Origin: an uncultured Barnesiella sp.
GTDB lineage: Bacteria; Bacteroidota; Bacteroidia; Bacteroidales; Barnesiellaceae
Direction of reading: 5' to 3'
Length of the DNA: 24,000 nucleotides
Assembly: GCA_944320015.1 (NCBI GenBank)
Contig: CALUFO010000005.1
Span: 1 to 24,000, forward strand
The position numbers and the translations under genes were made by a program. The notes below the pieces were generated by a model that worked only from the letters and a program-made list of their open reading frames with translations, ran no database searches and had not been told where the DNA came from. Shown one piece after another: positions 2,191 through 19,374 of this stretch (its first letter is position 1; the number at the start of each line of letters is the position of its first letter).

Positions 2191-2268
2191 CCGCCCCGCT
2201 CCCCTGCCACCCGGTGCCCCTTCGCCCGGTTTTCCCGGCATAGAGGAATACATTTGCAATCGGGGAAG

Positions 2269-2425
2269 GAGTTTAAATATATCTCCTGCCGATTACAGTA
2301 AGCACAGCGGGAGAGTTTAGACTATTCACACTTCTCCTCTGTGTGGCGAAGCCATATAGGGGAGAAACCGAGGGACGGTAGTCCCGAGGAGAGGGGTTGA
2401 AAAAATGACGGAGGGGGTTAAATAT
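2269..2425 (+). repeat. Stem-loop repeat tract (family 1): one complete forward unit plus fragments
   Basis: Hairpin core UUCUCCUCUGUGUGGC-GAA-GCCAUAUAGGGGAGAA at 2332-2366. Second stem-loop GGGAC-GGUA-GUCCC at 2372-2385. 3' modules GAGGAGAGGGGTTGAAAAA and GACGGAGGGGGTTAAAT. Upstream fragments GGAGTTTAAA and CACAGCGGGAGAGTTTAGAC, and the CCTGCCGATTACAGTAA module at 2285-2301. Confidence 0.8.
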
Positions 2426-2492
2426 TTTCATACACAGTATTTAATATTGTGGTAGAGTGGCGCTTCACCAGTGCCGGAAGAGTTGAAGGATA

Positions 2493-2533
2493 CAAAAAAG
2501 AGGCCTACCCAAAAATCGGGAAGGCCTCTTTTA
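2493..2533 (-). terminator. Intrinsic terminator downstream of the ferredoxin gene (structurally bidirectional)
   Basis: 8-bp stem AGAGGCCT (2499-2506) / AGGCCTCT (2522-2529), extended by inner CCC/GGG pairs. An A run on the plus strand at 2494-2498 gives a T run on the minus strand; a T-rich stretch also follows on the plus strand. Confidence 0.7.
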
Positions 2534-2555
2534 ATTTAATCGTTACTTGTATTAC

Positions 2556-2723
2556 TTATTCTTCGTGGATAGCGTCGTTAGGACAAACCTCGGCACAAGT
2601 ACCACAGCTCAAGCATTTGTCAGGGTCGATTTTGTAGATATCGCCTTCCGAGATAGCCTCTACCGGGCATTCGCTAATGCAAGAACCGCAAGCAACACAA
2701 TTGTCATTAATAACGTAAGCCAT
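2556..2723 (-). CDS. Small 2x[4Fe-4S] ferredoxin (55 aa)
   Basis: My own translation of the minus strand: MAYVINDNCVACGSCISECPVEAISEGDIYKIDPDKCLSCGTCAEVCPNDAIHEE*. It has two CxxCxxCxxxCP cluster motifs. Absent from the ORF track because it is shorter than 60 aa. ATG at 2723, TAA at 2556-2558. Confidence 0.9.
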   Translation of the reverse strand: MAYVINDNCVACGSCISECPVEAISEGDIYKIDPDKCLSCGTCAEVCPNDAIHEE

Positions 2724-2768
2724 TGTTTTTTAGTTTTTAGTTGTAAATAATTAGATCTAATTGCAGCA

Positions 2769-2798
2769 CAAATGTACGATTTTTATTGCTATCGCAAA
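2769..2798 (-). promoter_or_regulatory. Candidate Bacteroidetes-type promoter for the ferredoxin gene
   Basis: The minus strand reads TTTG-N18-TACATTTG, matching the TTTG (-33) / TAnnTTTG (-7) consensus. It lies about 45 nt upstream of the ATG. Confidence 0.45.
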
Positions 2799-2853
2799 AA
2801 AAATGAGGGGGAATTTGTGAACCGATTGTGCTTTTAAGTCACCTTCACGCTAA

Positions 2854-3052
2854 AAACTATCTACACTCCTCCTCTCTACCCGGTGCCAGTAGCATAGCGG
2901 AAAGGCGTTGAAGCACACAGATAAATGTGCATTTACTTGAAAATATAGAGGTGATTTTAAACTCCTCCTCTGTGTTTTGCGGAGCAAAATATAGGGGAGG
3001 TGGCACGCAGTGACGGAGGGGTTAGAGAAAAAATTGGAAAATAAAAAGGAAG
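2854..3052 (+). repeat. Solo copy (U0) of the X segment plus forward hairpin unit that is triplicated at 3553-4191
   Basis: Aligns with 3574-3772 with 4 substitutions that I counted (about 98 percent). Hairpin core CCUCCUCUGUGUUUUGC-GGA-GCAAAAUAUAGGGGAGG at 2964-3000. It ends ATTGGAAAATAAAAA, like the last tandem copy. Confidence 0.85.
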
Positions 3053-3080
3053 TCTTATCGATATTTCAATTTTAGCAAAT

Positions 3081-3088
3081 TATATTTG
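3081..3088 (+). promoter_or_regulatory. Candidate -7 box (TATATTTG) for the DUF559 gene
   Basis: Exact TAnnTTTG match 20 nt upstream of the GTG start at 3109. No clean TTTG -33 element. Confidence 0.4.
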
Positions 3089-3108
3089 TAATTCATTTAT
3101 AATGAGAT

Positions 3109-3507
3109 GTGAGCCGGAATTATAACAAAAAAGAAAAAGAGAAGCAACGAAAAGAACTTCGCTCCTATGGGACAAAATATGAAGCGACCATGTGGCTCCT
3201 TCTGAAAAATAGAAACATCGAAGGTGTAAGATTCCGCCGCCAATTTTCGGTGGGAGAATATATATTGGACTTTTACAGCCCCGAATTAAAATTGGCAATA
3301 GAATTGGACGGGAATGACCACTATTCCATTGAAGGCAGCTACAAAGACAGGGTTCGGGATAAGTGGCTTTCTACCCATGGTATAGAAGTATTGAGAATTG
3401 AAAACTGTGCGATTTTCGAAAACCAGCAAGCTGTAATAGAGCTGTTGAAAGAGACTGTTCAACGATTAAAATCTTCGGCTCAAAATTATAGAAAAGAAAT
3501 ATTATAA
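3109..3507 (+). CDS. DUF559 / Vsr-like (PD-(D/E)xK fold) endonuclease domain protein
   Basis: 132 aa. The pattern LRSYGTKYEATMWLLLKNR..FRRQFSVGEYILDFYSPELKLAIELDGNDHY...RDKWLSTHGIEVLRIEN matches the DUF559 family layout as I know it. GTG start; the only upstream ATGs are out of frame or hit a stop at once. Visibly AT-rich compared with neighbouring genes. Confidence 0.75.
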   Translation: MSRNYNKKEKEKQRKELRSYGTKYEATMWLLLKNRNIEGVRFRRQFSVGEYILDFYSPELKLAIELDGNDHYSIEGSYKDRVRDKWLSTHGIEVLRIENCAIFENQQAVIELLKETVQRLKSSAQNYRKEIL

Positions 3508-3510
3508 GGC

Positions 3511-3577
3511 TTTAACCCCCTCGCCTACGGCACTCCCCCTATATTCCCTTACGGGAACACAGAGGGAGAGTTTAAAC
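3511..3577 (-). repeat. Complete reverse-orientation hairpin unit (GUAA subtype) starting 3 nt after the DUF559 stop
   Basis: TTTAACCCCCTCGCCTACGGCACTCCCCCTATATTCCCTTACGGGAACACAGAGGGAGAGTTTAAAC. Core at 3533-3570. It is the reverse complement of the forward archetype seen at 7042-7112 and 19415-19478. Confidence 0.85.
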
Positions 3578-4191
3578 TATCTACACTCCTCCTCTCTACC
3601 CGATGCCAGTAGCATAGCGGAGAGGCGTTGAAGTACACAGATAAATGTGCATTTACTTGAAAATATAGAGGTGATTTTAAACTCCTCCTCTGTGTTTTGC
3701 GGAGCAAAATATAGGGGAGGTGGCACGCAGTGACGGAGGGGTTAGAGAAAAAATTGAAAAATAAAGGGAACACAGAGGGAGAGTTTAAACTATCTACACT
3801 CCTCCTCTCTACCCGATGCCAGTAGCATAGCGGAGAGGCGTTGAAGTACACAGATAAATGTGCATTTACTTGAAAATATAGAGGTGATTTTAAACTCCTC
3901 CTCTGTGTTTTGCGGAGCAAAATATAGGGGAGGTGGCACGCAGTGACGGAGGGGTTAGAGAAAAAATTGAAAAATAAAGGGAACACAGAGGGAGAGTTTA
4001 AACTATCTACACTCCTCCTCTCTACCCGATGCCAGTAGCATAGCGGAGAGGCGTTGAAGTACACAGATAAATGTGCATTTACTTGAAAATATAGAGGTGA
4101 TTTTAAACTCCTCCTCTGTGTTTTGCGGAGCAAAATATAGGGGAGGTGGCACGCAGTGACGGAGGGGTTAGAGAAAAAATTGGAAAATAAA
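3553..4191 (+). repeat. Perfect tandem triplication of a 213-bp mosaic unit
   Basis: Unit starts (GGGAACACAGAGGG) at 3553, 3766 and 3979. Copies 1 and 2 are identical where compared; copy 3 differs only near its end. Forward hairpin cores at 3684-3720, 3897-3933 and 4110-4146. Confidence 0.95.
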
Positions 4192-4195
4192 AAAG

Positions 4196-4335
4196 TTTAA
4201 AGCATCTACACTTCTCCTCTGTGTGGCGACAGCCATATAGGAGAGAAACAGAGGGAGAATTTAAATGTACCTCCTTGCCGGTTACAAATCGGAGAAGGTT
4301 GACCCATTTAAACTATCACACGCAGGGAGGGTATT
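4196..4335 (+). repeat. Stem-loop repeat tract (family 1)
   Basis: Core UUCUCCUCUGUGUGGC-GACA-GCCAUAUAGGAGAGAA at 4212-4247 with one mismatch. Followed by ACAGAGGGAGAATTTAAA, the CCTTGCCGGTTACAAAT module (4273-4289) and further degenerate fragments. Confidence 0.75.
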
Positions 4336-4336
4336 G

Positions 4337-4379
4337 AAAAAAAACAGAGGCCGCGCCCCAAAGGGGACACTGCCTCTGT
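4337..4379 (-). terminator. Intrinsic terminator of the 716-aa gene
   Basis: 8-bp stem ACAGAGGC (4344-4351) / GCCTCTGT (4372-4379). The minus strand then reads a run of 7-8 T (plus-strand A run 4337-4343). It lies 26 nt downstream of the stop at 4405. Confidence 0.75.
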
Positions 4380-4404
4380 ACTATGATAAAAGGTAGGAGG
4401 TTGC

Positions 4405-6555
4405 TTAGAATACAACTACTTTTTGGTTGCCGATGACGTAGATGCCGGCGGGCAGGGTTACGATGTTGGAACCCTCGGTGAGTTCGATTTGGCGAACTTG
4501 CGCACCGGTGAGGGCATATACGGCAACGGTAGCGGCTTCGGAGGCTTCGATTGTTACCTGTCCTTTACCGCCGATAATCTTCATACCGGCAACTTCTACG
4601 CTTGCTATACCCGTGGCGGAGCCTTCTTTGATCATAAGGTCGGTAATTTCCCAAGTAGACGCTCCGGCGGTGGTACTTGTATATTTGAAAGCAAAACGGA
4701 TAGGAGCGGTGAGATCTTTCAATTCGATGTCGCCCGATTCGGCCCATTCGAAATAACCCTCAGACCAAGCTGCACGATCGGTAATATTCACCCACTCGGC
4801 GTCGCCGGGTTGCATGGTATTGGGATCATAGTCGCTCGAATAAAGCAGTTCCAATGCATTCCCTTCATAGCTGTAAGCTGAACTGAAATTCAAGATGATG
4901 TTATTGGCGGTTACAGCCGGTGAGATGAGGTAGGCTTCACTGTCGGTATTTTTACCATTGATATACCCGCTTACTTTGGCGCCATATTGAGAATCGGACT
5001 CCCATTGAGCCTCTCCTACGGTGGTGATAGAGAGCCAATCGCCGAGTCCCGATTTGAAGTCGATCGAGTGGGGCAATGAGGCCGACAAAGCCCTTACTGT
5101 CAAGGTATATTGGGCAACGCCTTCGCGATAGGTGTCATCGGCTTCGGTCGTAGCTTTGATAATGGTGGTTCCTGGGCCTACTATGGTCACGAGGCCTTCG
5201 GCGCTAATCGTAGCCACTTCTTGGTCGCTGCTGCTATAAGTAATCGGTTTTTCGGGGGTAGCCGTGGCGGCGCTGTTGTAGGTGAGGCCTTCGGCAAAGA
5301 AGAGGTCTTTGTTGCCGCTCACTTCGTTGAATGTTACTTTTACGTCTTGTTTTCCGTCGTTTTCTTCCAATTTGTAGAGAGTGAGATCTTGTTGCTTGCT
5401 TGATGCCTTATAGCAAGCAAACCATTTAGAGCCGCTGTTGTATTGTAAGAAGCGGTCGGTATATTGTACATTCGTAGCTCGGAATTTATCGTTTTCTATT
5501 GAAAAATTCCATTCACATACTTTGTCTTCAAAATCAGAAAGAGAAGCATCATTACTATTTTCACCGGCAACATAAGTTCCATTATTACTAATGCTTACAC
5601 CGTTCGTTGTTGTAATAATATCCCAAACAATAGAGGCATCGGGGTTAAAAATCGCATCATCATCTGAAACATTGATTGTCGTGGCTGCAATTCTACTACC
5701 ATTGGCTTGGTTTACCATAGCCATGGTATTCTTGTAGGCGATTACATACTTACCATCGGTCAATTCGTCGATAGAAGAGATTTTTGTAAAGATTTTAGCT
5801 GTTGCCGGGTCAATCACGGTCAAGGTATATTCTACGGAAGCGGCATCAAAAGTCTCGGTCTCGGCTACTTCGGCTTTGATCACCGTCGTACCACCGGCAA
5901 CCAGTGTAACAAGCCCCTTTTGATTGATCGTAGCTACCTCGGTGTCGCTACTGCTGTATGTAATAGTGGCATCGGAGACCGTAGTGGCGGCGCTGCTGTA
6001 GCTGCCCTCGGTGAGTTGTTTGGTCACATCGCCCGTGATGTCGGTAAAGGCAAGCTCGGGATTTTGCAACGAGGAACTGGCAATGGGCTTGATATCGATT
6101 TGCGTGATATAGGTGGCTGCGCTACCTGCTTCGATAGTAATACTTGCACTTGGAGATGTTACCGAAAGAGTGAGCGGAGATGCTCCTTGCACCGTATTAT
6201 CGGTGCCGGTTTCTGTAATGGAAGCATCATTTTTAGTACAGTCAAAAGTAATCGTTACATCAAAGCCATTTGAGGTTTCAAAGGTCGGGGAGAGTAATAC
6301 TCCTTTATCACCTTTGAGCTGTATCCGGGCCTTAGTATTTTCGCGCATTACAGATTGAACGAAAGTCCAAGTATAATCTACACCATCGCTACCGACGAAT
6401 ATTTGCTCCCCTTTCGATGCGTCATAGCTGGAGCCTGTTACTTTTGACCAATCGTTAAATGTGACATCTTGTGTAAGAGAAACCGCCCAAGCGGAAGTTC
6501 CACAAAGCAAAGCCACCAATAGGATAGCTGTGCGTAAAAAGTAATTTTTCTTCAT
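4405..6555 (-). CDS. T9SS-secreted surface protein with two Ig-like (Big_2-type) repeats and a C-terminal T9SS sorting domain; function unknown
   Basis: 716 aa. Signal peptide MKKNYFLRTAILLVALLCGTSAWA. Two internal repeats: TYSSSD(T/Q)EVATI...GLVT(L/I)V..GTT(V/I)IKA...YTLTV. The C-terminal ~70 aa (GIASVEVAGMKIIGG...VYALTGAQV...LPAGIYVIGNQKVVVF) fit the T9SS CTD pattern. Confidence 0.8.
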   Translation of the reverse strand: MKKNYFLRTAILLVALLCGTSAWAVSLTQDVTFNDWSKVTGSSYDASKGEQIFVGSDGVDYTWTFVQSVMRENTKARIQLKGDKGVLLSPTFETSNGFDVTITFDCTKNDASITETGTDNTVQGASPLTLSVTSPSASITIEAGSAATYITQIDIKPIASSSLQNPELAFTDITGDVTKQLTEGSYSSAATTVSDATITYSSSDTEVATINQKGLVTLVAGGTTVIKAEVAETETFDAASVEYTLTVIDPATAKIFTKISSIDELTDGKYVIAYKNTMAMVNQANGSRIAATTINVSDDDAIFNPDASIVWDIITTTNGVSISNNGTYVAGENSNDASLSDFEDKVCEWNFSIENDKFRATNVQYTDRFLQYNSGSKWFACYKASSKQQDLTLYKLEENDGKQDVKVTFNEVSGNKDLFFAEGLTYNSAATATPEKPITYSSSDQEVATISAEGLVTIVGPGTTIIKATTEADDTYREGVAQYTLTVRALSASLPHSIDFKSGLGDWLSITTVGEAQWESDSQYGAKVSGYINGKNTDSEAYLISPAVTANNIILNFSSAYSYEGNALELLYSSDYDPNTMQPGDAEWVNITDRAAWSEGYFEWAESGDIELKDLTAPIRFAFKYTSTTAGASTWEITDLMIKEGSATGIASVEVAGMKIIGGKGQVTIEASEAATVAVYALTGAQVRQIELTEGSNIVTLPAGIYVIGNQKVVVF

Positions 6556-6721
6556 AGATATATTGTTTTAGAGTTTATAGTACCTGTTTTTGGTTTATTC
6601 AATCCCTTTCATATAGTCTAACAAAAATATAAAATAGGAATGGAAAGAAAAAGTTTTTTTGTGAGAAAGTTGCGATATTTCACAGAAATGTCATAAGGGT
6701 AGGTTCTTCCGGGGAATTTTC

Positions 6722-6788
6722 TTTACCCCCTCTCCTCGGGACTACCGTTCCTCGGTGTCTCCCCTATATCACTTCGTGACACAGAGGA
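6722..6788 (-). repeat. Reverse-orientation hairpin unit (CAC-GAA-GUG subtype), truncated at its outer end by the family-2 element
   Basis: CCCCCTCTCCTCGGGACTACCGTTCCTCGGTGTCTCCCCTATATCACTTCGTGACACAGAGGA. Core at 6758-6788. It is the reverse complement of the unit at 22021-22085. Confidence 0.8.
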
Positions 6789-6988
6789 TTTCTATTTGTT
6801 CATTCTTCTCAACAGCGAGAAGAACGAACCAAGAAGCGCCGCCGCTGTTATCGGGCTTATTCGCTCGGTCGCTGCTGCCTCCGTCGGGGGTTGCGGAACT
6901 CGCTTCGCTCAGACAGTCCTCGCCCGGGTTCCTCCGCCGGTAGGCGCCCTCCCGGCCCGATAAAGGCGGTTTCCCTACCGGACATGCT
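6780..6988 (+). repeat. GC-rich ~208-bp element, copy A (family 2)
   Basis: Aligns over its full length with the reverse complement of 19651-19857, with about 10 substitutions and one 1-nt indel. Contains the hairpin TTCTTCTC-AACAGC-GAGAAGAA and the core GGGGTTGCGGAACTCGCTTCGCTCAGACAGTCCTCGCCC. Confidence 0.9.
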
Positions 6989-7041
6989 TGCCATTATTTT
7001 TTACCTTTTTCTCTTTGATTTTAAGTGACAAAAGGGATACA

Positions 7042-7225
7042 TTTAAACTCCTCCTCTGTGTTCCCGTAAGGGAATATAGGGGAGGTGGCACGCAGTGACG
7101 GAGGGGTTTAAATGTTTTATGACGGAGGTGGTGCAGCCCTCGGGGGTTAAATCCCGTGAGGGGGTTGTAAATTCTATTTGAGCCTCGCAAGAGACGGAGG
7201 GGAAGTGCCCGTTAGGGGGCGAGAG
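7042..7225 (+). repeat. Archetypal forward hairpin unit (7042-7112) plus a string of 3' modules
   Basis: TTTAAACTCCTCCTCTGTGTTCCCGTAAGGGAATATAGGGGAGGTGGCACGCAGTGACGGAGGGGTTTAAA. Core at 7050-7085. Followed by GACGGAGGTGGTGCAGCCCTCGGGGGTTAAAT and GACGGAGGGGAAGTGCCCGTTAGGGGGCGAGAG, running up to the ispF stop. Confidence 0.85.
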
Positions 7226-8954: not shown

Positions 8955-11900
8955 TTATTGCGTGATGACGACTATTTTTTTTGTGGGGGTGGCTATTGTC
9001 CCGGTCGATGTCTCGAAGTATCCCCGGCAATAATATTGCCCGGCGGGCACCCGCTTGCCGCTGGTGTCGCGGAGGTGCCAGATGACGGGGAAGGGGTTGC
9101 TGCCTGACTCGTACGTCCATACTTCTTGTCCCAGATTGTCGGTAATGGAGACGAGCGCCCGTTTCAAGTCGGCGATTTCGTTTCCGTCTTGGTCTTGGCA
9201 CGAGAGCGTGGCTTTCTCGGTTATGGGATTCTCGGCCACCGATAGTGTATAGGTATCGTCACCGCCGTTTATTCTAAACGAGATCGAGGACTCTGATGAG
9301 TTCCCCAATGAGTCGAATACTTTGAAGGTGAGCGTGTGCGGCCCGTCGGATAAATGGGGCAGCGGGTATATAAACTCGCCCCCGGGAATATCGCTGTCGG
9401 TCATGGGCGAGTAGTAGTGCAGGGTGTTTTCTCCGATGCTTCCGCCGTCGAGCCACAGGGTCATTTGCCGTCCCAAGCCATTGCCTGTCCATATCCCGGA
9501 GGGATCGGAGAATCGGCAGATAAAGGTCGCGGGATTGTGGTACAACTCGCCCTCGGCAAACGATTCGTCGTTTAGCCCGATAAATTCGATTTGCGGGCCT
9601 TGTGTCTCTTTTGCCGTTGTTTCGCTGTCTGTGCCAATCAGCAGTTGTTCGGTATATCCGTTGGCTTCCCGGCCGGTTTCGTCGTAGGCGTACAGGTTGA
9701 GCAAACCCGATTTCCCCGAGCGGGAGTTTTCGGCCGGCAATATGATGGTCGTTTTGAATAGCCCGTTTCGCACTGTCCCTTTGCCTGTGGACAACAGGTC
9801 GGGGCGGTATTTATAGGTCCAAGTCTGGTCGTCTTGGTTGCCGAGCGTCGTGAATGTTTTCTCCTCGTCGTAGAGCGAGTAGAATATTTCACCGTTGAAA
9901 TCTGAGAGCAATTTGTTTTGGTAGGAGCGTATTTCGCCCTCGATCGTATAGCTTCCGCCGGGAATCAATTCTACCGGGTCGCCGCTGCTATTCCCGTTTA
10001 TTTGGGTGACTTGTATTGTGTGTTCGGGGTAGGTCAGTTTCAACGCCGGGTCGCCGATGAGAATATAGTTGAGCTTGTTTTTGTCGATTTCGTTGTTGAA
10101 GTCGCGCTTGGCTAATCGGAGTATGTCGCCGACTCGCACGGGTTTACCGTCGGAGTCCCGGTCGAGCAGGCGTTTCATCAGCCGGCGGTTGATTTTGTCG
10201 TTCCCGTCGGTATATACGACACGGGTGGTGGTGATCAGTCCTATGGCTCCACCGGTAGGATTGAGGAATACCGACTCGCCGGACGAAAACTCGTTCTCGT
10301 CGTCGAACTGGGTGTAGTTGCAAGTAACTGTGATAAAGAGCGGTAGCCGGCTGTTGTCGAGGTTGTCCATTTCGACCCGTGAGAGGAGCCCTTCACCGGT
10401 GAGTCCCACTTCGGGGTCGTTGTGCCCGATATAGTTGAAGACGAGCATTCCATCTTCAAATTGTTTCATCAGTTCCCGGTTGGCGTCGTGGTTCTTTTTG
10501 GAGACGGGGTCTAAGTGGTAGGAGTCGATGAAGATTTTGTTTACCCTGAATTGCAACCTTGGGTTTGCGGTGTTTTTAAGCAGCAGAGTGTCGCTCCCCA
10601 TATCGGCCTGCTCGGTGTGAATCGCTTCGTCGCCGTCGTCGGCAGCTACGCAAATGCTGTTTTTCCACGGAGAAAAGTCGGTGTTGCCTACATATCGATA
10701 CATTTTATCGACCACCAATTGCGCCTCTTTGACCGACGTTACGGGGAACCGCCCGATGCCCAGACACACTTTGTCGACTTTTATTTCGGTGCCCGTGTTG
10801 TCTTCCAAGAAGCCAAAATAATCTTCCAGCACAAAGGACTCCCGCTCGTCGATGCTGGTTTTGGATTGGTAGGTCAGCAGCATGTTGCACTCGGGGGTGT
10901 GCAGTGACGTCATGGCCTTGCGGTTATCGTAGGAGCCGTCGCCGAACAGGAGCAGGTAGCGAGGCTGTGGATTCGAGCCGTTGGCCCGGTCGTAGAACAT
11001 CTTCATGAGCCTCCGGTAGGCTGTCGCGTCGGGAGTTCCCGAGGAAAATTCGTTGAATATTTTTTCTTGTTCGACCACAACGGCCGTGAGGCCCTCGGCT
11101 CGATGCAACTGCGCCATTCGTTCGGCTTGGTCTTGGAACGCCGCCGGGGTGATGATGGTGAGGTCGGCGATGTCCAAGGCGTGTAAGTTCTGGTTCTCGA
11201 TTTTCCGCACGAAAACGGGCGAGGGGAAATCCCGTTGGGTATCGAAAGCGATAAATTCGCGCAGCTGAGTGTCTTCGGGCGCAAACGAGCAAACCCCGTT
11301 TTCAAAGGAGGTGAGTATGTTTTTGGGGGCGTGAGGGGTGGTGACGTCCCATACCCGTGTAGACTCGGTGCATTGCCCTATTTGGTAATAGTTGCCGCTG
11401 GAGCGGTCGATGAACCGGAATGACACCTGCCCGTCGTATAGTTGCAGCTTGCGTGTGTAGTTGAGCCTTATATAGTCGAGATGGGCGCAAGAGGTGACAC
11501 CGGTGCTGGAATAGCGCAGGCCTATGGTCGAGGTTTCCGAGGCTTCTTCGGCCGTTTTGATAGGAGAGATTTGCCGGAGGAACTCGTGTGTGTCGTAATA
11601 TTTTGTAATCCGGTTGGAGGTGTTGACCGGCAGGTCGACACCGTTGTAAGAGATGTATATATACCCCTCGGCGTCGCTAATCTTCGCACCGAACGATACC
11701 CTTATTTTTATGGACTTGGGCAGTGCGCCGGGCAAATGAAATGTAAACTCTTGGCTGGGATCCGACAAGAAATCTTCTCCAAAGAAATTTTGCCCGGTAC
11801 GACCCACCGAAATCAACTCTTTCTCGTGAATCGTATAGTCGTTGAACGAAGATACCGCGGTCGTATTCTCTCCTGTGGGGAGGGGTGTCGAAACAGTGGG

Positions 11901-12362
11901 AAACGGGGTTTCGGCAGTCTCCTTATCGGTCAGGAAGTAGTAGGCGTGGGTCGAGTAGGGGTGGAGCCGATGAATAAATTCTTGGTTGTAGGGGTCGAGC
12001 TCCCATAGGGTCGTTCCTGTCGAATAGAAGTAGAGTTTGCCGTCTTGTCGCCACAGCGGTATTTGGGGCAAATCGTCGATATAATCGTCGTCGTTTGAGA
12101 AGAGTTCGTCGATGACGAGCCCGCCGTACCCGAAGAGCTTTACTTTCGAGGGGTCGGAGAATCCCCACGCTTTCAAAGAGTCGTCGGATATTTGGTAAAT
12201 CCCGGCGTCGGTAGTCGATATTTTTACCCAATTGCCTTCGGCCAAAACCGAACTTGCCGCATAGTCGCTGCTACTTCGCCCGTGTGCGGGGAGAAGCGTG
12301 ACTATGGCGCATATTATCGTGAGCAATATGGGCGTTTTTCGTATGGTGCGAGTCATTGGCAT
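8955..12362 (-). CDS. porU: T9SS sortase PorU (peptidase C25 / gingipain family)
   Basis: About 1135 aa. Its size, its position upstream of porV, and the gingipain-like dyad context (YIGHN... and RLPLFITVTCNY) support PorU. It keeps its own C-terminal beta-rich domain. The track start at 12383 is a TTG that overlaps the upstream gene, so I prefer ATG 12362 (or 12356), which gives MPMTRTIRKTPILLTIICAIVTLLPAHG as the signal peptide. Confidence 0.85.
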   Translation of the reverse strand: MPMTRTIRKTPILLTIICAIVTLLPAHGRSSSDYAASSVLAEGNWVKISTTDAGIYQISDDSLKAWGFSDPSKVKLFGYGGLVIDELFSNDDDYIDDLPQIPLWRQDGKLYFYSTGTTLWELDPYNQEFIHRLHPYSTHAYYFLTDKETAETPFPTVSTPLPTGENTTAVSSFNDYTIHEKELISVGRTGQNFFGEDFLSDPSQEFTFHLPGALPKSIKIRVSFGAKISDAEGYIYISYNGVDLPVNTSNRITKYYDTHEFLRQISPIKTAEEASETSTIGLRYSSTGVTSCAHLDYIRLNYTRKLQLYDGQVSFRFIDRSSGNYYQIGQCTESTRVWDVTTPHAPKNILTSFENGVCSFAPEDTQLREFIAFDTQRDFPSPVFVRKIENQNLHALDIADLTIITPAAFQDQAERMAQLHRAEGLTAVVVEQEKIFNEFSSGTPDATAYRRLMKMFYDRANGSNPQPRYLLLFGDGSYDNRKAMTSLHTPECNMLLTYQSKTSIDERESFVLEDYFGFLEDNTGTEIKVDKVCLGIGRFPVTSVKEAQLVVDKMYRYVGNTDFSPWKNSICVAADDGDEAIHTEQADMGSDTLLLKNTANPRLQFRVNKIFIDSYHLDPVSKKNHDANRELMKQFEDGMLVFNYIGHNDPEVGLTGEGLLSRVEMDNLDNSRLPLFITVTCNYTQFDDENEFSSGESVFLNPTGGAIGLITTTRVVYTDGNDKINRRLMKRLLDRDSDGKPVRVGDILRLAKRDFNNEIDKNKLNYILIGDPALKLTYPEHTIQVTQINGNSSGDPVELIPGGSYTIEGEIRSYQNKLLSDFNGEIFYSLYDEEKTFTTLGNQDDQTWTYKYRPDLLSTGKGTVRNGLFKTTIILPAENSRSGKSGLLNLYAYDETGREANGYTEQLLIGTDSETTAKETQGPQIEFIGLNDESFAEGELYHNPATFICRFSDPSGIWTGNGLGRQMTLWLDGGSIGENTLHYYSPMTDSDIPGGEFIYPLPHLSDGPHTLTFKVFDSLGNSSESSISFRINGGDDTYTLSVAENPITEKATLSCQDQDGNEIADLKRALVSITDNLGQEVWTYESGSNPFPVIWHLRDTSGKRVPAGQYYCRGYFETSTGTIATPTKKIVVITQ

Positions 12363-12372
12363 GAATGGATTG

Positions 12373-12990
12373 CTATTTGACAAAGAAGTCGAGAACTTTG
12401 GTTTCCCCCAAATATCCCACGAGGTGGTCGCCTATTTTTACGGGGCCTACACCCGCCGGGGTTCCGGTGAAGATGATGTCTCCGATCTTCAAGGTATAGA
12501 ATTGGCTGACATAGGCGATAATCTCGTCGATGTGAAAAATCATGTCGTTGCTGTTCCCGCGCTGGACGGTGGTGCCGTTGATCGATAACGAGAAGTCTAA
12601 GTTGTCGGCTTTGCGGGGTTGATCGGGCAGCGGTAAGAACTGTCCGATAGGAGCCGAGTAGTCAAAACCCTTGGCGATGTCCCACGGGCTGCCCGAGGCG
12701 CGCGCCTCGGCCTGTTTGTCCCGGGCGGTGAAATCGATCCCTACGGTGACGGCGTCGTAGTAGCGGTGCGCAAATTTGGGGGCGATATTTTTCCCCAACC
12801 GCGAAATGTGAAATACCAGCTCGGTCTCGTATTCGATGCGGTCGGAGAACTGAGGCAGGAAGAACGGTTTCCCGTTTTTTAGCAGGGCAGTCTCGGGTTT
12901 CAGAAAGACAACCGGATAGGGCGGAATGTCTGTTCGATTCATTTCCGCGTTATGAGCATTGTAGTTCCAACCGACGGCGATTATTTTCAT
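12373..12990 (-). CDS. Fumarylacetoacetate hydrolase (FAH) family protein
   Basis: 205 aa. Motifs E(T)ELVFHI, GIDFTARDKQ...GSPWDIAKGFD and IIFTGTPAGVGPVKIGD are typical of the FAH / 2-keto-4-pentenoate hydratase fold. Confidence 0.85.
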   Translation of the reverse strand: MKIIAVGWNYNAHNAEMNRTDIPPYPVVFLKPETALLKNGKPFFLPQFSDRIEYETELVFHISRLGKNIAPKFAHRYYDAVTVGIDFTARDKQAEARASGSPWDIAKGFDYSAPIGQFLPLPDQPRKADNLDFSLSINGTTVQRGNSNDMIFHIDEIIAYVSQFYTLKIGDIIFTGTPAGVGPVKIGDHLVGYLGETKVLDFFVK

Positions 12991-13818: not shown

Positions 13819-14165
13819 TTTAAACTCTCCCTCTGTGGGTTACTAACGACAGGTGAAATATTTAAACTCCTCCTCTGTGTTTTGCGGAGCAAAATATAGG
13901 GGAGGTGGTGCAGCCGGAGGGGTTGAAACTCTGTGTTTACAGCAACTGGCAAGGGTATGCATTTAAACTCCTCCTCTGTGTTTTGCGAAGCAAAATATAG
14001 AGGAGGTGCCCGTTAGGGCGGAGGGGTTTAAAGTGCTTTATCACAGTTTTTTAGCCTCTTGGTTTTCAACCCCTCTCCTCGGGACGTGTGTCACCCTCGG
14101 TTTCTCCCCTATATGGTTGGCACCACACAGGGGAGAAGTGAAGATAGTTTAAACTCCTCCGCCCC
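13818..14165. repeat. Dense stem-loop repeat mosaic (family 1): two forward units, one reverse unit, fragments
   Basis: Cores at 13869-13905 (GGA loop), 13970-14006 (GAA loop, with a compensated U-A pair) and 14102-14137 (reverse, GGU-GCCA-ACC subtype). A 5' fragment at 13818-13850. The TTTACAGCAACTGGCAAGG module at 13936-13954. Confidence 0.85.
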
Positions 14166-14621: not shown

Positions 14622-14642
14622 GCATATAATGTGGGAATTATT

Positions 14643-14677
14643 AAGGAGGAGGATACAAAACACCCTCCTCCTTTTTA
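14643..14677. terminator. Bidirectional intrinsic terminator between convergent genes
   Basis: 10-bp stem AAGGAGGAGG (14643-14652) / CCTCCTCCTT (14664-14673), followed by TTT. It is flanked by A/T on both sides and sits between the XRE stop (14621) and the lipoprotein stop (14698). Confidence 0.75.
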
Positions 14678-14697
14678 TCGCTTTTATAAACGCTATT

Positions 14698-15192
14698 CTA
14701 TTGCATAGGTTTTAAATAATCCAAAAATTTTATACTGTTATCATTTGCTTTGCTTATGGACGGATTCTTTGTGACCATTGTTTCTTCGTCCAGTATAATA
14801 TTTATATTGTCACCTTTTTTGATTACTCCTAATGACGCTATGTATAGTCTTGCATTTGAAGATAAATCATAAAACGGAGATTCTGGAGGAACCGCTTTAA
14901 ATGAAACTTGAACCTTAGAGCATGATTCTTGAACTTGTATAGCTTTTGATCTTCCGCCGCCATATGGTATATCATCTATGTTTATTTGCCCGATGTTGAT
15001 TCCATTTTCGTCTAATTCAAATGCGACAACTTCATACATTGTACCATTCAAGTATTCGTCTAAACTTGTTTCATATTTTTCTGAATTGTTGATAATGGTA
15101 AATGTTGAAATAGACGGCTCATCATCTTTTGAGCAGCCTGCAAACATAAATAAAACAGCCAACAAAGGCAGCATAAATGGTATTTTCTTCAT
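14698..15192 (-). CDS. Hypothetical small lipoprotein
   Basis: 164 aa. Signal peptide with lipobox MKKIPFMLPLLAVLFMFAGC. AT-rich. I recognise no family. Confidence 0.7.
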   Translation of the reverse strand: MKKIPFMLPLLAVLFMFAGCSKDDEPSISTFTIINNSEKYETSLDEYLNGTMYEVVAFELDENGINIGQINIDDIPYGGGRSKAIQVQESCSKVQVSFKAVPPESPFYDLSSNARLYIASLGVIKKGDNINIILDEETMVTKNPSISKANDNSIKFLDYLKPMQ

Positions 15193-15231
15193 TTTACATT
15201 GATTTTATCGATTAAACATTCGGATTCAACA

Positions 15232-15602
15232 TTATTTTCTTATATAGACAACGCTCTCTCCTCCCTGCGAAATATGTAACTTGTTATTCTGTATCACATA
15301 ATTGACTGTGCTGCTCGTTGAAGTTCCACCCTGCTTCATGAGTGCCGTAATGGTAGTCTCGGTTGCATTCCATGTAAATGATATTCTCGAACTCTCCTCT
15401 ACCTCACCATAAAACTCCATCCATTGATCTCCTGTTTTATCAGCTCGAAACTCTATATTATAGACTTCGTACTCCGATTTGGTATCCTCTACTCACAGAC
15501 CAACCAACTGCTGTTCATAGTCATTGACAGCATCGTCATCAGAGCAGGAAACAATAAAAAGCATGGGCAACATCGCGGCCAGCATAAAATGATTTTTCTC
15601 AT
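15232..15602 (-). pseudogene. Disrupted lipocalin-like lipoprotein gene (in-frame TGA plus probable 5' frameshift)
   Basis: My translation from ATG 15585: MLAAMLPMLFIVSCSDDDAVNDYEQQLVGL*VEDTKSEYEVYNIEFRADKTGDQWMEFYGE..., which continues in frame into the track ORF 15232..15420. The stop is TGA at 15493-15495, where the LxGxW context predicts TGG (Trp). The better signal-peptide start MRKII (ATG 15602) is in another frame. Confidence 0.65.
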
Positions 15603-15861
15603 AATTGCATTTTTAAATTGTGGTTATCTTTAATTACTTTAACTTAACGGCTGTAGAATCATAACAAATATAAAAAGTTCAATTCTGTTTGTCATAATTT
15701 TGTTTGAAATTTTAATATTATTTATGAAAGATATATCACTTTCCTTATTGTAAATCAAGGAATGGGAGTCCTGAGGATAGAACTGAAAGAGATGTAAAAC
15801 ACTGTATATGAGAGTGCTGTAAACTATTAGTCCGTGTGATGAGGAGGTTAAAAGCGACTTC

Positions 15862-18800
15862 TTACTGGCCGGTTACGCACAATTTCTTGGTGCGAGTGGT
15901 CTCGTGCTGGTTGTCGGTCGAGATAATGGCTTTGTACAGATAGATTCCGCCGGGGACCCTGCTGCCGCTGCTGTTTGTCAAATCCCATGTGACAGGATAG
16001 GACCGATACATGTCGGAGAGCCCTTTGCCGGTGTATCGCCATACTTCCACGCCCATGAGGTTGTAGACGCATATCGTTACATTTATCAACGCTTCGGGGC
16101 GATTGTGCCTCAAATAGAAGTTGGTCGATGTGCTGGCGGGGTTTTGGTCGGCATATAGGTCATAGATAACCGGTTTCAGCCCTTGTTCTACGGCGAAGGC
16201 GATTTCCACCTCCGACGAATTGTTCTCGGTATCCCATATTTTCAGGCGCAGGGTGTGCTCGCCGTCGCTTAATCCGTCCAGCGGGTAGGCGATAGAGCCT
16301 CGTCCAAACTCGCCTAACGCAGGCTCGAAGTAGGAGGCCACATCGGTATATACGGTCTGGTCGTCGAGTGTCACGGTCATCTGGTGGCCGATACCGGCGT
16401 CGGAGATATTCAATCCCGACTCGTCGAATACTTCGGCGATTAACAGCGGCGATTCATTGACTATGTCGCCGTTCTCGAAGTCCTCGGAATTGAGGTAGGC
16501 GTAGTATATTTCGGGCCCTTCGAAATCCTCGTTGGAGGAGTCGTTGAACCCGCCGACGATGAAATTCGATTCGTTTCCGCTTCCCTCTTGACCCTCGTCG
16601 TTGTAGCAATAGAGGTTTATGAGGCCTTTGTCATCGGCGAAGTTGATTTCCCGGGGAACTTTGAATGCGATTTCGAAAGTCCCGTTGACGATAGAGTCTT
16701 TGCCTACGAATAGCCGGTTGCTCCGTTGCTTGAACTCGATGGCTTCTCCCTGCTCGCCGTATCCATGGGTTACGGTGGTGATTTCCGAGTCGTAGACAGT
16801 GGGATAGATGACCCCGTTGTAGTCGGTCGCCTTTTCTCCCGAGGGGGTATATATCTCCCCTTTTATGGATACCGAGTCTCTCGCCTGTATGGTAGGGGTT
16901 GTTTGTGTGATGTCGAAACCGTTCACCTCGGTCACTTTTATTTGGTAATCGGGATATAATAGCCGCAAGGCCGGGTCGCCCAGCAGGGTGTAGTTCAGCT
17001 TGTTGCTGTCGGTCTGTTGGATATTGCATTTGGCTTCGCGCAGAATATCGCCGAGGCGGGGATATTCGAGGTTTTCGTCTTTTTTGAAGATTTCCCGGGC
17101 GATGCCGCTATTGATGTAGTGGTTGTCGCTGATGTAGACGACCCGGGTGGTGGTGATGAGCGCGATGCCGCCTCCGTCGGGGTTCAGGCACAGGATTTCG
17201 CCGGCCGAGGTGCTCTCGTGGTCATAGCGCCCGAAGTCGCAAGTGGCCGTGATGAACAGCGGTAGCCGTTTCAAGTACATCGATTGTATGTCGGTGATGT
17301 TCAGCAAATTCTCGTGAGTCCATGCGACCGTGCTGCCGTGCCCGATGTAGTCGATGACCAGCACCCCGTCGTCCAAGACTTGGAGCAATTTCTTTTTGGC
17401 GGCGGGATATGTGCGCCCTGTGGAGGCGATTTCGGCCGTATAGGCGTCGATGTAGATTTTGTTGATAAAGCAGTGTGCGTCGCTGTTTTCCAGTATGGAG
17501 CAAATGTCTTCGGCTTGTTTCATGTGCGCCGCGTAGTTTTCGTCGTCGGCGACGACGCAAACTTGGTTTTTCCACGTCCCTTTGTCGCTGTTGTGGACGT
17601 AGTTGTAGAGTTTGTTTACCACATTTTGGGCTTCTTGCTCGCTTTGCACGGGCAGCCGCCCTACGCTCACACGGAGTTTGTCGGCGGCGATGGTTTGCCC
17701 GGAGTTGTCGTCGAGAAACCCGAAGTAGTCGTCGGTCGTATAGGAGGCCCGTTCGTCGGTGCCGGTGCCGTGCTGGTAAGTCAGCAGAGTGGGATATTTC
17801 ACATATTTGCCGGTTTCGCCTATTTTGCGATTGTCATATAGTCCTTTCCCGAAAAGCAGCAGGTATAGCTGTTTGCCGTTGGTGCCGCCTTCGCGGTCGA
17901 AAAACATTTTCATCAGCCGGCGATAGGCTGTGGCGTCGGGCGTACCCGAAGAAAACTCGTTGAACACGGTCTCGTGGTCGATGACGGCGACTTCCATGCC
18001 GTCGACTTCTTGGTGCAACCGGGCAATCTCTTCGGCATAGGCGATGTATTCTTTGGGAGTGAGAATCACCATGTCGGGGGTAGCCATGCCGTGCAGGTCT
18101 TGGTTGGCCACGGTCTCGATAAACTCTACCGAAGCCACGGTGGCCTGCTCGTCAAAAGCGATGTATTCTTCGTTATCCTTGGTGGGAACAAAACGGGCGT
18201 TGCCGTTGTCGTTACGGGGGATAATGTTTACAGGCTGTTGGGGGTTTGAGATGTCCCAAATGTGGATTGCCGGGGTATAGCCTTGCAGGCTGTAACAGCC
18301 ATTCTCGGGGAGTTGGGCCAACCTGAATTGAAGGCTCCCGTTGTAGAGTTGCAGCTTGCGCTTGTAGTTGAACCGGAAGTAGTCGAGGCGGGCTAAGGTG
18401 AGGCTCCCCCTGTTTTGCCGGAACAGCAGGTTGAAGTCGAGTTCTTCGCTGTCGAGGTAGATCTCTTTGAGCGTGGAGGTCGTTTTCACAAAATCGTAGG
18501 AACTTTCCGACCCCGACGAGATATTGTCGGTGTTGCTCTCGGGCAGAGTTTCGCCGTTGTGGGTGAAGATGAGCTTGCTGTTCCCACCTACCACTTTCGC
18601 GCCGAATGCCGTGCGCAGCTTTACCGGCGCCGAATTGTCTACTCCCGGTAATTCGAACGTGAAGTCCTGTGAGGCGTTGTAGCGGAAGTCCTCGCCTAAG
18701 AATAGCCGACCGGTCGAGCCGGGAGAGTATAGGTCTTGTTCATAAACGGCATGCTCGTCAAACGAGGTAATGTCGGTCATGCCGTCTGTGGCGCCGCCGT

Positions 18801-19293
18801 CGCGCTCGGACAACGTGGCGGTCTTGCTTTTGCTATCGGTGAGGAAGTAGTATCCGGCGATAGAATAAGGATTCTGCTCGTGGGAGTACTCGCCCGATCG
18901 CGAGTCGTATTTCCACGAAATAGGCCCTTGTGCGTAGAAAAGTATTTTGCTGTCGGTGTAGACGACCGGTATTTGGGGCAGGTCGTCAATATCGTTTTCA
19001 GAGAAAGTCTCGGGCAAAATGGCACCGCCATATCCAAACACAGTTACGGCCGAAGGATCGGAGAATCCCCATTTGCTCAGTTCTTGGTAGGTGATTTGAT
19101 GAATCCCCGACTCGTAAACGGCCACTTTCACCCACAGGCCGTCGGCCAGTTGCGAGTGCGAGGCGTAATGGTCGGCATTCAGCGCATGCGCCGTCGCCGA
19201 GACAAGAAGCGTCACGCACAGGCATATACCTGTGCGCAAGCGTCGCAGCGGGTTTGTAGTGAGTATATTATAATGTTTTACAATCTCTTTCAT
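15862..19293 (-). CDS. Second PorU-like peptidase C25 paralogue (about 1143 aa)
   Basis: Same length and architecture as porU. Shared blocks EFSSGTPDATAYRRLMKMF, LLLFG.G.YDNRK, RLPLFIT.TC and KLNY.L.GDPAL.L.YP. Gingipain-like IDYIGHGSTVAW and LFITATCDF. I prefer ATG 19293 (MKEIVKHYN...RRLRTGICLCVTLLVSATAHA), because the 35-codon track extension runs into a repeat unit. Confidence 0.85.
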   Translation of the reverse strand: MKEIVKHYNILTTNPLRRLRTGICLCVTLLVSATAHALNADHYASHSQLADGLWVKVAVYESGIHQITYQELSKWGFSDPSAVTVFGYGGAILPETFSENDIDDLPQIPVVYTDSKILFYAQGPISWKYDSRSGEYSHEQNPYSIAGYYFLTDSKSKTATLSERDGGATDGMTDITSFDEHAVYEQDLYSPGSTGRLFLGEDFRYNASQDFTFELPGVDNSAPVKLRTAFGAKVVGGNSKLIFTHNGETLPESNTDNISSGSESSYDFVKTTSTLKEIYLDSEELDFNLLFRQNRGSLTLARLDYFRFNYKRKLQLYNGSLQFRLAQLPENGCYSLQGYTPAIHIWDISNPQQPVNIIPRNDNGNARFVPTKDNEEYIAFDEQATVASVEFIETVANQDLHGMATPDMVILTPKEYIAYAEEIARLHQEVDGMEVAVIDHETVFNEFSSGTPDATAYRRLMKMFFDREGGTNGKQLYLLLFGKGLYDNRKIGETGKYVKYPTLLTYQHGTGTDERASYTTDDYFGFLDDNSGQTIAADKLRVSVGRLPVQSEQEAQNVVNKLYNYVHNSDKGTWKNQVCVVADDENYAAHMKQAEDICSILENSDAHCFINKIYIDAYTAEIASTGRTYPAAKKKLLQVLDDGVLVIDYIGHGSTVAWTHENLLNITDIQSMYLKRLPLFITATCDFGRYDHESTSAGEILCLNPDGGGIALITTTRVVYISDNHYINSGIAREIFKKDENLEYPRLGDILREAKCNIQQTDSNKLNYTLLGDPALRLLYPDYQIKVTEVNGFDITQTTPTIQARDSVSIKGEIYTPSGEKATDYNGVIYPTVYDSEITTVTHGYGEQGEAIEFKQRSNRLFVGKDSIVNGTFEIAFKVPREINFADDKGLINLYCYNDEGQEGSGNESNFIVGGFNDSSNEDFEGPEIYYAYLNSEDFENGDIVNESPLLIAEVFDESGLNISDAGIGHQMTVTLDDQTVYTDVASYFEPALGEFGRGSIAYPLDGLSDGEHTLRLKIWDTENNSSEVEIAFAVEQGLKPVIYDLYADQNPASTSTNFYLRHNRPEALINVTICVYNLMGVEVWRYTGKGLSDMYRSYPVTWDLTNSSGSRVPGGIYLYKAIISTDNQHETTRTKKLCVTGQ

Positions 19294-19374
19294 GTATCCT
19301 ATATAACGCAAAACCTCCCGAATTATTGCCGCAGGTAAAAATATTCGTTTGTTCTTCTCAGCGGTAGGTAGCAA

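Follow-up and report, generated by a model that had tools for sequence, protein, structure and literature searches.

The 24,000-nt stretch of DNA from an uncultured Barnesiella sp. analyzed here (hereafter, the window) contains, at positions 7042-7113, a copy of a dispersed, non-coding, palindromic repeat of Barnesiella-like gut Bacteroidales that consists of two hairpins, is probably of the kind of the repetitive extragenic palindromes (REPs), their paired forms (REPINs) or the MITEs (miniature transposable elements with inverted repeats), and has a candidate partner nuclease in a DUF559 family protein that is encoded between inverted copies of the repeat. The repeat occurs as solo copies, as tail-to-tail dimers and in mosaic clusters, which fill the DNA between genes. 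The repeat family is new: in the literature searched, we found no earlier description of it, nor any report of this sequence or of repeats in Barnesiella.

The focal copy (TTTAAACTCCTCCTCTGTGTTCCCGTAAGGGAATATAGGGGAGGTGGCACGCAGTGACGGAGGGGTTTAAAT) is organized as TTTAAAC-TCCTCCTCTGTGT-TCCC-GTAA-GGGA-ATATAGGGGAGG-TG-GCACGCAGTGAC-GGAGGGGTT-TAAAT and is located downstream of ispF, in the antisense orientation. Hairpin 1 is, as noticed in a preliminary reading made from the letters of the window (the sequence-only reading), an uninterrupted 16-bp stem with a GTAA loop, and includes three wobble pairs (T:G, G:T and G:T). The copies in the window have the same layout: hairpin 1, with a C-rich arm, a TGTGT/ATATA segment that carries the G:T wobbles, and a variable apex; a TG dinucleotide; a small, variable hairpin 2; and the motif GGAGGGGTT. 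Folded as DNA, the forward strand reaches between -12.2 and -15.3 kcal/mol (z between -3.3 and -4.3) and the reverse strand between -7.5 and -11.8 kcal/mol (z between -1.7 and -2.3), the forward strand being the more stable by 3-6 kcal/mol; with the covariance model, reverse-strand echoes of the copies have far lower scores than the copies themselves (for the focal copy, 16 versus 86 bits).

The covariance model, built from 58 copies, detects 19 copies in the window, each 60-80 nt long, all intergenic, 13 on the forward and 6 on the reverse strand, with scores of 32-92 bits (Table 1). Combined with a hidden Markov model, it yields approximately 325 copies in 105 fetched loci from Barnesiella-like genomes and gut metagenomes, where the copies are often densely clustered in both orientations. 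Hairpin-1 and hairpin-2 types reassort between copies, the 5' flank varies by lineage, divergent subfamilies have Watson-Crick pairs in place of the wobble segment, and the spacings within tail-to-tail dimers form a distinct class of 18-32 nt. A strict pattern matches 4 of 185,579 species-level genomes, all of them Barnesiella, Porphyromonadaceae or Bacteroidales metagenome-assembled genomes (MAGs); with a looser pattern, the metagenomic matches listed are mostly from the human gut. No Rfam family matches the repeat, and with a cutoff of E<=1, Rfam detects nothing in the window but tRNA-Pro; plasmids yield no match, and the pattern matches in the IMG/VR viral contigs are due to chance, with no true copies among them. 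Seven unannotated human-fecal GenBank contigs labeled "Bacteriophage sp." (MT839328, MT835894, MT836672, MT837309, MT836850, MT839338 and MT836359) carry copies at 80-93% identity and are probably bacterial fragments.

Base pairing itself is the conserved feature of the repeat, the stems being kept paired by selection. An alignment of 135 distinct copies taken from metagenomes and other genomes has 94.7% of its cells paired and changes on both sides at 13 of the 22 pairs; it reaches a covariation score of 0.298, compared with 0.117 for shuffled alignments (0 of 500 reach the observed score) and at most 0.116 for slid controls. The window copies alone give 89.7% of cells paired, 11 of the 22 pairs changed on both sides, and a score of 0.336 versus 0.170 (again, 0/500), with slid controls at or below 0.123. 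For the 17 pairs of hairpin 1, the paired fraction is 98% in the wider set and 93% in the window set. The covariation noticed in the window copies is also seen in the wider alignment and extends to hairpin 2: the variants of this hairpin that had been listed were found, and 3 of its 4 pairs have changed on both sides in the 135 copies. Also recovered, in place or displaced by 1-2 nt, were all the previously listed apical variants (TTTTGC-GGA-GCAAAA, TCCC-GTAA-GGGA, GGC-GAA/GACA-GCC, CAC-GAA-GTG and GGT-GCCA-ACC), along with the point changes in the lower stem that keep pairing (G to A at 13971-14005; T to C at 19528 and, on the reverse strand, 14104). Family-wide, there are at least 25 different apical stems, nearly all self-complementary, with a mean length of 3.8 bp compared with 0.67 bp after shuffling; 47 loop types occur, so that the GNRA loop proposed from the focal copy has to be rejected as a feature of the family. 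A further helix that would close the element from outside, as a terminal inverted repeat (TTTAAAC/GTTTAAA), was considered and discarded: it forms in the window copies, but family-wide it shows no covariation, and 53% of its cells pair, the same as in shuffled sequences.

The distribution of differences between 250 pairs of near-identical copies (1-3 differences in the core) shows that the stems, the TG linker and GGAGGGGTT are constrained and the loops are free. The loop of hairpin 1 accounts for 46% of the differences in 5% of the columns, and the stem of the same hairpin for 14% in 57% of the columns; the inner part of hairpin 2 contributes 24%, and the 3' motif 4%. Differences are enriched 8.7-fold in loops and 0.25-fold in stems, that is, loops are about 35 times more variable per site; the unpaired TG linker and GGAGGGGTT are conserved as strongly as the stems. 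Many of the metagenomic copies were retrieved with a pattern that specified an intact lower stem, so that the conservation of this part is partly a sampling effect; on the apex, on hairpin 2 and on the loops, the search placed no constraint. A duplex half-site recognized by its sequence would not tolerate such variation and, therefore, the fold matters as an intrastrand hairpin.

In sister strains with ispF genes that are 98-99.8% identical, the ortholog of the focal copy belongs to another subfamily, with the apex CTCGGC-AGTG-GCCGAG, and the approximately 100 nt of 3'-half fragments at 7114-7225 are missing. Given that the orthologous copy has a different apex, the apical "swaps" are subfamilies replacing one another and not stepwise compensatory mutation at one site. 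Such replacement at an orthologous site, together with the reassortment of hairpin types and the alternation of T:G with C-G at one position, could also be produced with no selection on the fold, if complementarity arose by template switching in quasi-palindromes and by gene conversion between copies. This purely mutational explanation seems extremely unlikely because two of the G:T wobbles are retained in 129-132 of the 135 copies and have not been "corrected", because unpaired parts of the element are as conserved as the stems, with loops alone free, and because the architecture is kept in distant Bacteroidia.

The sequence-only reading further suggested that the G:U pairs at the wobble positions, present on the forward strand only, point to selection on a single-stranded fold of the hairpin, as RNA or single-stranded DNA (ssDNA), and not to a duplex protein-binding site. 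At three inherited positions, the asymmetry is real: among the 135 copies, the first is UG in 89 and CG in 44, and the other two are GU in 132 and 129, respectively; on the whole, 94.7% of the cells pair on the forward strand compared with 82.5% on the reverse strand. At all other pairs, however, G:T (pairing on the forward strand only) and A:C (pairing on the reverse strand only) are found 18 and 19 times, so that new mismatches show no strand bias, and the asymmetry is a property of the lineage consensus rather than of a continuing strand-specific filter. The copies that flank DUF559 genes in other Bacteroidia have perfect stems and no TGTGT/ATATA wobble segment. The central inference, of selection on a single-stranded fold, stands, and the variation in stems and loops is indeed unlike that of a half-site read by sequence, but the argument from strand asymmetry is weaker than it appeared, and DNA is a likelier form of the hairpin than RNA given the random orientation of the copies with respect to genes.

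A structured RNA selected on the forward strand, be it a stabilizer in 3'-untranslated regions, a terminator or a small RNA, would account for wobbles that pair on that strand only, for the strong covariation and for the enrichment of copies downstream of genes; convergent intergenic regions in particular are enriched (38% vs 16% of gene pairs). Nevertheless, we consider such an RNA highly improbable. The mixed orientation noticed in the window turns out to be random: 122 copies are sense and 140 antisense with respect to the neighboring gene at 3' sides (p=0.29), and 84 and 94, respectively, at 5' sides (p=0.50). There is no U-tract at the copies and no preferred distance from stop codons; divergent promoter regions carry copies too; sporadic mismatches lack strand bias; and the cassette ends described below surround one gene in both orientations. 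The random gene orientation and the lack of an Rfam match disfavor a role of the forward strand in mRNA and make ssDNA or a cruciform likelier; the pattern of orientation and location fits tolerated selfish DNA acting as a DNA hairpin and not an mRNA element. With respect to replication, the forward strand of the element lies on the C-rich strand in 131 cases versus 58 in the raw counts and in 53 versus 37 once homologous loci are removed (p=0.11), and the window shows the opposite.

The gene located between inverted copies of the repeat in the window encodes a Vsr-like nuclease in which the catalytic-type residues D54, E65, D67 and H71 are invariant across 11 homologs. The structure predicted for this protein (mean confidence, pLDDT, 88) has its best fold matches in the PDB in 3HRL, I-Bth0305I (3R3P) and Escherichia coli Vsr (1CW0/1VSR). 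The first of these, the DUF559 protein NGO0050 of Neisseria gonorrhoeae, is the closest solved structure both by fold (match probability 1.0; TM 0.90 normalized to the target) and by sequence (E=6.6e-11). The fold is known from intron homing and from the nicking of T:G mismatches, and DUF559 has been placed in the PD-(D/E)xK group together with Vsr and the intron homing endonuclease (PMC3424549). In contrast to these two relatives, the DUF559 gene is free-standing between hairpin repeats, is not intronic, and has no methyltransferase partner. In the literature searched, no link between DUF559 and repeats was found. About 20 nt upstream of the start codon, at 3081-3088, the sequence TATATTTG, which is kept in the 75%-identical homologous locus L058, fits the -7 promoter consensus of Bacteroidetes, TAnnTTTG.

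A tblastn search revealed DUF559 homologs in four further loci among those fetched for the repeat, each inside a repeat cluster, and in all five loci (the window, L017, L058, L095 and L002) the gene lies between an upstream copy on its own strand and an inverted downstream copy. The nine DUF559 lineages examined are 43-75% identical to the window protein and are found in different genomic contexts, and in seven of the nine the gene lies between two inverted copies. The resulting cassettes (inverted repeat ends plus the DUF559 gene) are 600-760 bp long, and every lineage has the same module, namely, a C-rich/G-rich hairpin 1, TG or TA, a variable hairpin 2, which is often unlike between the left and right arms, and a G-rich motif. 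In one lineage (P0138, 54% identity), the gene is next to rplU, flanked by one copy at a distance of 70 nt upstream and one at 32 nt downstream. In another (P0137, locus L200; 56%), it is found among unrelated genes, in a 762-bp unit with inverted arms of 154 nt that are 93-97% complementary. At both of these loci, 5.4 kb of sequence contain no copies other than the two that flank the gene, at 32-70 nt from its ends. In a Bacteroides helcogenes-type lineage (P0195, locus L205; 51%), the gene lies between cobalamin genes, with 78-nt arms that are 90% complementary. A Bacteroidia MAG (P0153, 54%) has arm segments of 27 and 14 nt that are 100% complementary, and a Bacteroidetes MAG (P0189, 49%) has weak model matches on both sides plus CTCCTCC...GGAGGAG hairpins. 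Tail-to-tail dimers take the place of the inverted copies in two lineages: P0134 (55%), in a different context, has such a dimer on either side of the gene, and P0144 (53%), on a contig that begins 134 nt upstream of the gene, has one directly after it. The homolog from the candidate phylum KSB1 (P0229, 43%) is followed, just after the stop codon, by one perfect ACCTCCCCC...GGGGGAGGT hairpin. Many close DUF559 homologs are truncated or reside on contigs of 0.5-2.5 kb, as expected if assemblies break at the flanking repeats.

Cassettes are much less numerous than gene-less tail-to-tail dimers. The dimers of locus L210 align, end to end and inner flanks included, with the L200 cassette after in silico removal of its gene (score 170 versus at most 36 for shuffled sequences), and each of the 213-nt tandem units in the window corresponds to the window's DUF559 cassette without the gene, with AAAATAAA joined to GGGAACACAG at the junction. 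Judging from these alignments, the dimers look like gene-deleted cassettes. DUF559 might instead be a mere passenger, a selfish gene of the homing-endonuclease type that is lodged in, or targets, the dimers, with the repeats spread by an unseen enzyme or by recombination. The closest characterized fold relative is, after all, an intron-borne homing endonuclease, the gene-less dimers far outnumber the cassettes, and in the window's species the DUF559 gene is always found at one locus, in the order Fer4-DUF559-Big_2. We find the passenger scenario unlikely, however, because the association persists at 49-56% identity in unrelated contexts with arms 90-97% alike, because the only copies present in genomes of low repeat density flank DUF559, because the dimers keep the inner flanks of the cassette, as deletion derivatives would, and because the repeat-bearing DNA searched yielded no other candidate enzyme.

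Contigs encoding proteins identical to those of the window, which were used for strain comparison, show several kinds of change at the repeats. The tail-to-tail dimer at 13962-14164 (203-214 nt) is present in the window and in four sister strains and is precisely missing in strain L144, where the flanks are otherwise near-identical and the junction has only a 2-nt TG repeat. The metagenomic contigs L095 and L050 differ solely by one copy of about 88 nt, with flanks that are 97-99% identical. The two clean indels have flanking repeats of 2 nt (TG) and 4 nt (ACAA), the other indel junctions fall in a GGAGGGG motif, and GGAGGGGTT bounds two indels that separate related sequences; from the only two clean indels available, no constant target duplication emerges. 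An automated search for empty sites among the metagenomic loci was largely confounded, since the flanking DNA itself consists of repeats. Synteny breaks at the repeat clusters of the window (2250-7040 and 19400-20050). The rpmA and ispF genes are about 210 nt apart in related contigs and about 5 kb apart in the window, where Fer4, DUF559, the arrays and a Big_2 protein lie between them and GGATACATTT is duplicated at both junctions of the interval; RadC is followed in the window by a PorU paralog, in other strains by a GDSL lipase. Given that the clusters coincide with synteny breaks, the repeat probably drives rearrangement. A change in the sign of the GC skew at about 19500-20500, from about +0.1 to +0.2 down to -0.06 to -0.16 with the gene strand unchanged, is what a recent rearrangement at this cluster of repeats could produce.

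These polymorphisms bring MITEs to mind, as does the existence of an autonomous-looking unit (inverted ends and one gene) beside gene-less derivatives that have both ends and the inner flanks. The protein, however, is outside the known transposase families, the ends are structured modules of 80-150 nt and not short terminal inverted repeats, and no constant target-site duplication is seen. Ordinary MITEs would be duplex DNA moved by a DDE transposase that reads the terminal inverted repeats, with the hairpins being incidental. The window copies that start with TTTAAAC and finish with GTTTAAA, the variants composed of two inverted 5' ends, and the presence or absence of copies and dimers between strains are all in line with such an origin, which we nonetheless consider very unlikely: the outer stem pairs no better than in shuffled sequences, the 5' flank is lineage-dependent, the repeats that flank the indels are of different lengths, and covariation of internal hairpins with free loops would be left unexplained. 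Furthermore, a transposase-encoding parent that shares the ends was not found, and between distant element ends we found ordinary genes only, with no parent insertion sequence and no transposase gene bounded by the ends. An open reading frame (ORF) at 22386-23375, flanked by two identical copies, was examined as a possible transposase and turned out to encode a secreted protein with a sorting domain of the type IX secretion system.

The closest parallel is with the REPs and REPINs of Proteobacteria and with REPtrons, in which such repeats accompany REP-associated tyrosine transposases (RAYTs) (Nunvar 2010; Bertels & Rainey 2011; Ton-Hoang 2012; PMC3733652; PMC6006769). Like these, the present repeats are imperfect extragenic palindromes of small size, with copy numbers in the tens to hundreds; they occur as singletons, as inverted dimers that seem to behave as a unit and in mosaic clusters, mostly at the 3' sides of genes; a nuclease gene, usually single-copy, is flanked by inverted repeat copies; and it is the hairpin rather than the duplex that is conserved. 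Hairpin 1, at 31-36 nt, is a high-copy extragenic palindrome within the 20-40 nt size range of REPs, and the single DUF559 locus in the window's species matches the single-copy habit of RAYTs. With regard to REPINs, in which two inverted units form the mobile unit, the dimers have a distinct spacing class, and one of them is a clean presence/absence polymorphism, which may be either an insertion or a deletion. The differences are that the flanked gene encodes a PD-(D/E)xK enzyme and not an HUH/Y1 transposase, that the repeat has two hairpins and a G-rich 3' motif, that the dimers are tail-to-tail, with spacers of 18-32 nt, and that the host belongs to Bacteroidales. The repeat has no unpaired GTAG at the foot of hairpin 1, and CGTC is found only within the reverse-strand stem of hairpin 2 in some subtypes (GTGAC-GG); the CGTC families of REPs, with 8-9 bp stems and 4-5 nt loops, do not fit the repeat either (PMC3733652).

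It is conceivable that these are classical REPs that move as ssDNA hairpins under the action of a RAYT encoded elsewhere in the genome, considering the imperfect stems, the extragenic location with a preference for 3' sides of genes, the dimers and clusters, and the existence of a RAYT subclass (2.6) that is specific to Bacteroidetes and has REPs of an atypical kind (PMC6006769). We deem this quite unlikely. In 1.15 Mb of repeat-bearing DNA, motif scans and tblastn with E. coli RayT detected no ORF of the HUH/Y1 type (RAYT or IS200), whether flanked by repeats or not; when E. coli RayT was used as the seed of a search, all matches were from Enterobacteriaceae, and Bacteroidales were not reached. 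The GTAG foot is lacking, the published REP sequences of subclass 2.6 are unrelated, and the flanked position is held by a different nuclease. Integron attC sites share with the repeat the character of a recombination-type site that acts as an ssDNA hairpin, with outer boxes that are conserved (AAC...GTT), a self-complementary center that varies, and strand selectivity, but the repeat has two hairpins, lacks same-orientation arrays that separate cassettes, and has no integrase; copies are in mixed orientations (140 on the plus and 137 on the minus strand) with housekeeping genes between them, and the outer pairing is unsupported.

Under the interpretation favored here, the repeat would act as an intrastrand hairpin, in ssDNA or in an extruded cruciform, and a protein would recognize the conserved base of the stem, the TG linker and GGAGGGGTT, the apex and loops having only to pair. 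The DUF559 nuclease of the cassette is the best candidate for this hairpin-recognizing protein. After nicking or cutting by this nuclease at the hairpin, break repair or copying would spread the repeat, yielding new copies, gene-less dimers, tandem arrays, in situ replacement of subfamilies, and rearrangements. More specifically, we tentatively suggest, as a possibility that falls somewhat short of being probable, a REPtron-like system based on a different enzyme, in which the Bacteroidia DUF559 clade would be the cognate nuclease of the two-hairpin repeat that forms its inverted ends, would act on the hairpin in ssDNA or cruciform DNA, and would drive the spread of the repeat, the formation of its dimer and tandem derivatives and the replacement of copies in situ.

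Several observations weigh against this interpretation. The putative link between DUF559 and the hairpin is positional only, and the gene stays at one locus in the window's species, where the cassette is not seen moving. Two lineages depart from the simple arrangement of a gene between a plus-strand and a minus-strand copy, being organized as dimer-gene-dimer (P0134) and gene-dimer (P0144); the most distant lineages score weakly, at 14-26 bits, and the KSB1 homolog has only one related hairpin, downstream. The clean indels, with flanking repeats of 2 and 4 nt and no fixed target duplication, could equally be hairpin-stimulated deletions. A RAYT may be encoded elsewhere in these genomes, the search for it having covered 1.15 Mb of repeat-bearing loci. 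Finally, the cassette ends of other lineages lack the G:T wobbles, a feature that might suit an enzyme of the Vsr type. Recognition of T:G by such an enzyme was considered as the reason for the wobbles; this explanation is weakened by the perfect stems in those lineages, which leave a Vsr-like reading of the G:T mismatches unsupported, and, with the wobbles being lineage-specific, recognition of mismatches is no more than a possibility.

The DNA between bacterial genes is shaped by small palindromic repeats such as REPs, REPINs and MITEs, of which only the families linked to RAYTs have a known partner enzyme; the CGTC-type REPs and many other REP-like families have none. DUF559 offers a concrete candidate for the enzyme that reads such hairpins, here in abundant gut Bacteroidales, and the repeats offer a first functional context for the very large DUF559 domain, for which the usual annotation is "very short patch repair endonuclease". 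If the suggestion is correct, DUF559 would gain a function, and this would be the first partnership between a hairpin repeat and a nuclease that is not based on an HUH tyrosine transposase.

Table 1. Copies of the two-hairpin repeat, parts of the focal copy and the associated nuclease gene in the window
Feature	Position	Strand	Score or evidence
Long hairpin-2 subtype copy, apex GGC-GAA-GCC	2325-2403	+	57.5 bits
Copy just upstream of DUF559, same strand as the gene; left inverted cassette end	2956-3028	+	90.5 bits
DUF559 gene, Vsr-like PD-(D/E)xK endonuclease, 132 aa	3109-3507	+	Pfam PF04480, E=9.8e-27
Inverted copy, 2 nt past the stop codon of DUF559; right cassette end	3509-3576	-	66.3 bits
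Three identical 213-nt tandem units	3553-4191	+	Repeat family D1; 91% copy at 2833-3045
Three copies within the 213-nt tandem units	3676-3748, 3889-3961, 4102-4174	+	Covariance model
Copy, apex GGC-GACA-GCC, 3' part degenerate	4205-4267	+	32 bits
Copy, apex CAC-GAA-GTG	6720-6798	-	39.6 bits
Focal two-hairpin copy, full element	7042-7113	+	Covariance model R1, 86.1 bits
Hairpin 1, conserved lower stem CCTCCTCTGTGT/ATATAGGGGAGG, variable apex TCCC-GTAA-GGGA	7050-7085	+	DNA fold -15.3 kcal/mol
Hairpin 2, GGCAC-GCA-GTGAC, single G:A mismatch, variable	7087-7099	+	Covaries between copies
Conserved 3' motif GGAGGGGTT, G-rich	7100-7108	+	Near-invariant in alignments A1 and A2; entropy 0.17 bit/site
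Run of partial 3'-half copies (GGAGGTGGTGCAGCC..GGGGGTTAAAT, GAGGGGGTTGTAAAT, GGAGGGGAAGTGCCCGTTAGGGGGCGAG)	7114-7225	+	~100 nt missing from sister strains
Copy in the Rex/HTH divergent intergenic region	13861-13929	+	79.2 bits
Tail-to-tail dimer, copies 13962-14033(+) and 14063-14144(-)	13962-14164		Strain comparison
Copy, apex TCCC-GTAA-GGGA	19415-19479	+	46.9 bits
Copy with T to C converting the T:G wobble to C-G	19519-19591	+	92.5 bits
Copy, second repeat family in place of the 5' flank	19839-19912	+	57.3 bits
Copy, apex CAC-GAA-GTG	22011-22089	+	58.8 bits
Two neighboring copies, 22119-22191 and 22193-22264	22119-22264	-	88.4 and 54.4 bits
Copy, hairpin 1 whole, 3' part lost	23658-23720	-	44.8 bits

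Two other repeated sequences accompany the two-hairpin elements. A diverged relative of the element, ACACTCCTCCTCTCTACCCGATGCCAGTAGCATAGCGGAGAGG, is present in every 213-nt tandem unit (2872-2905, 3589-3622, 3802-3835 and 4015-4048). The second dispersed repeat, of about 180-197 nt, is found in the window at 6779-6975 on the reverse strand, at 19662-19858 on the forward strand and, in part, at 21838-21901; it is a long imperfect palindrome containing GGCGAGGACTGTCTGAGCGAAGCGAGTTCCGCAGCCCCCGACGG, has no Rfam match, and is represented by two window copies that are 95% alike and by 25 blastn matches in 19 fetched loci, always beside two-hairpin elements.

Elsewhere in the window, a low-GC insertion of 1234 nt (14628-15861), located between the convergent genes for a helix-turn-helix (HTH) protein and a PorU paralog, contains two small lipoprotein-like ORFs and, at its left end, a terminator-like hairpin (GGAGGAGG/CCTCCTCC); in five sister-strain contigs that lack the insertion, the two genes are 5 nt apart. 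The window also encodes two paralogous PorU-like C25 peptidases, at 8955-12383 (1142 aa) and 15862-19398 (1178 aa), on the same strand, 6.9 kb apart and beside PorV.

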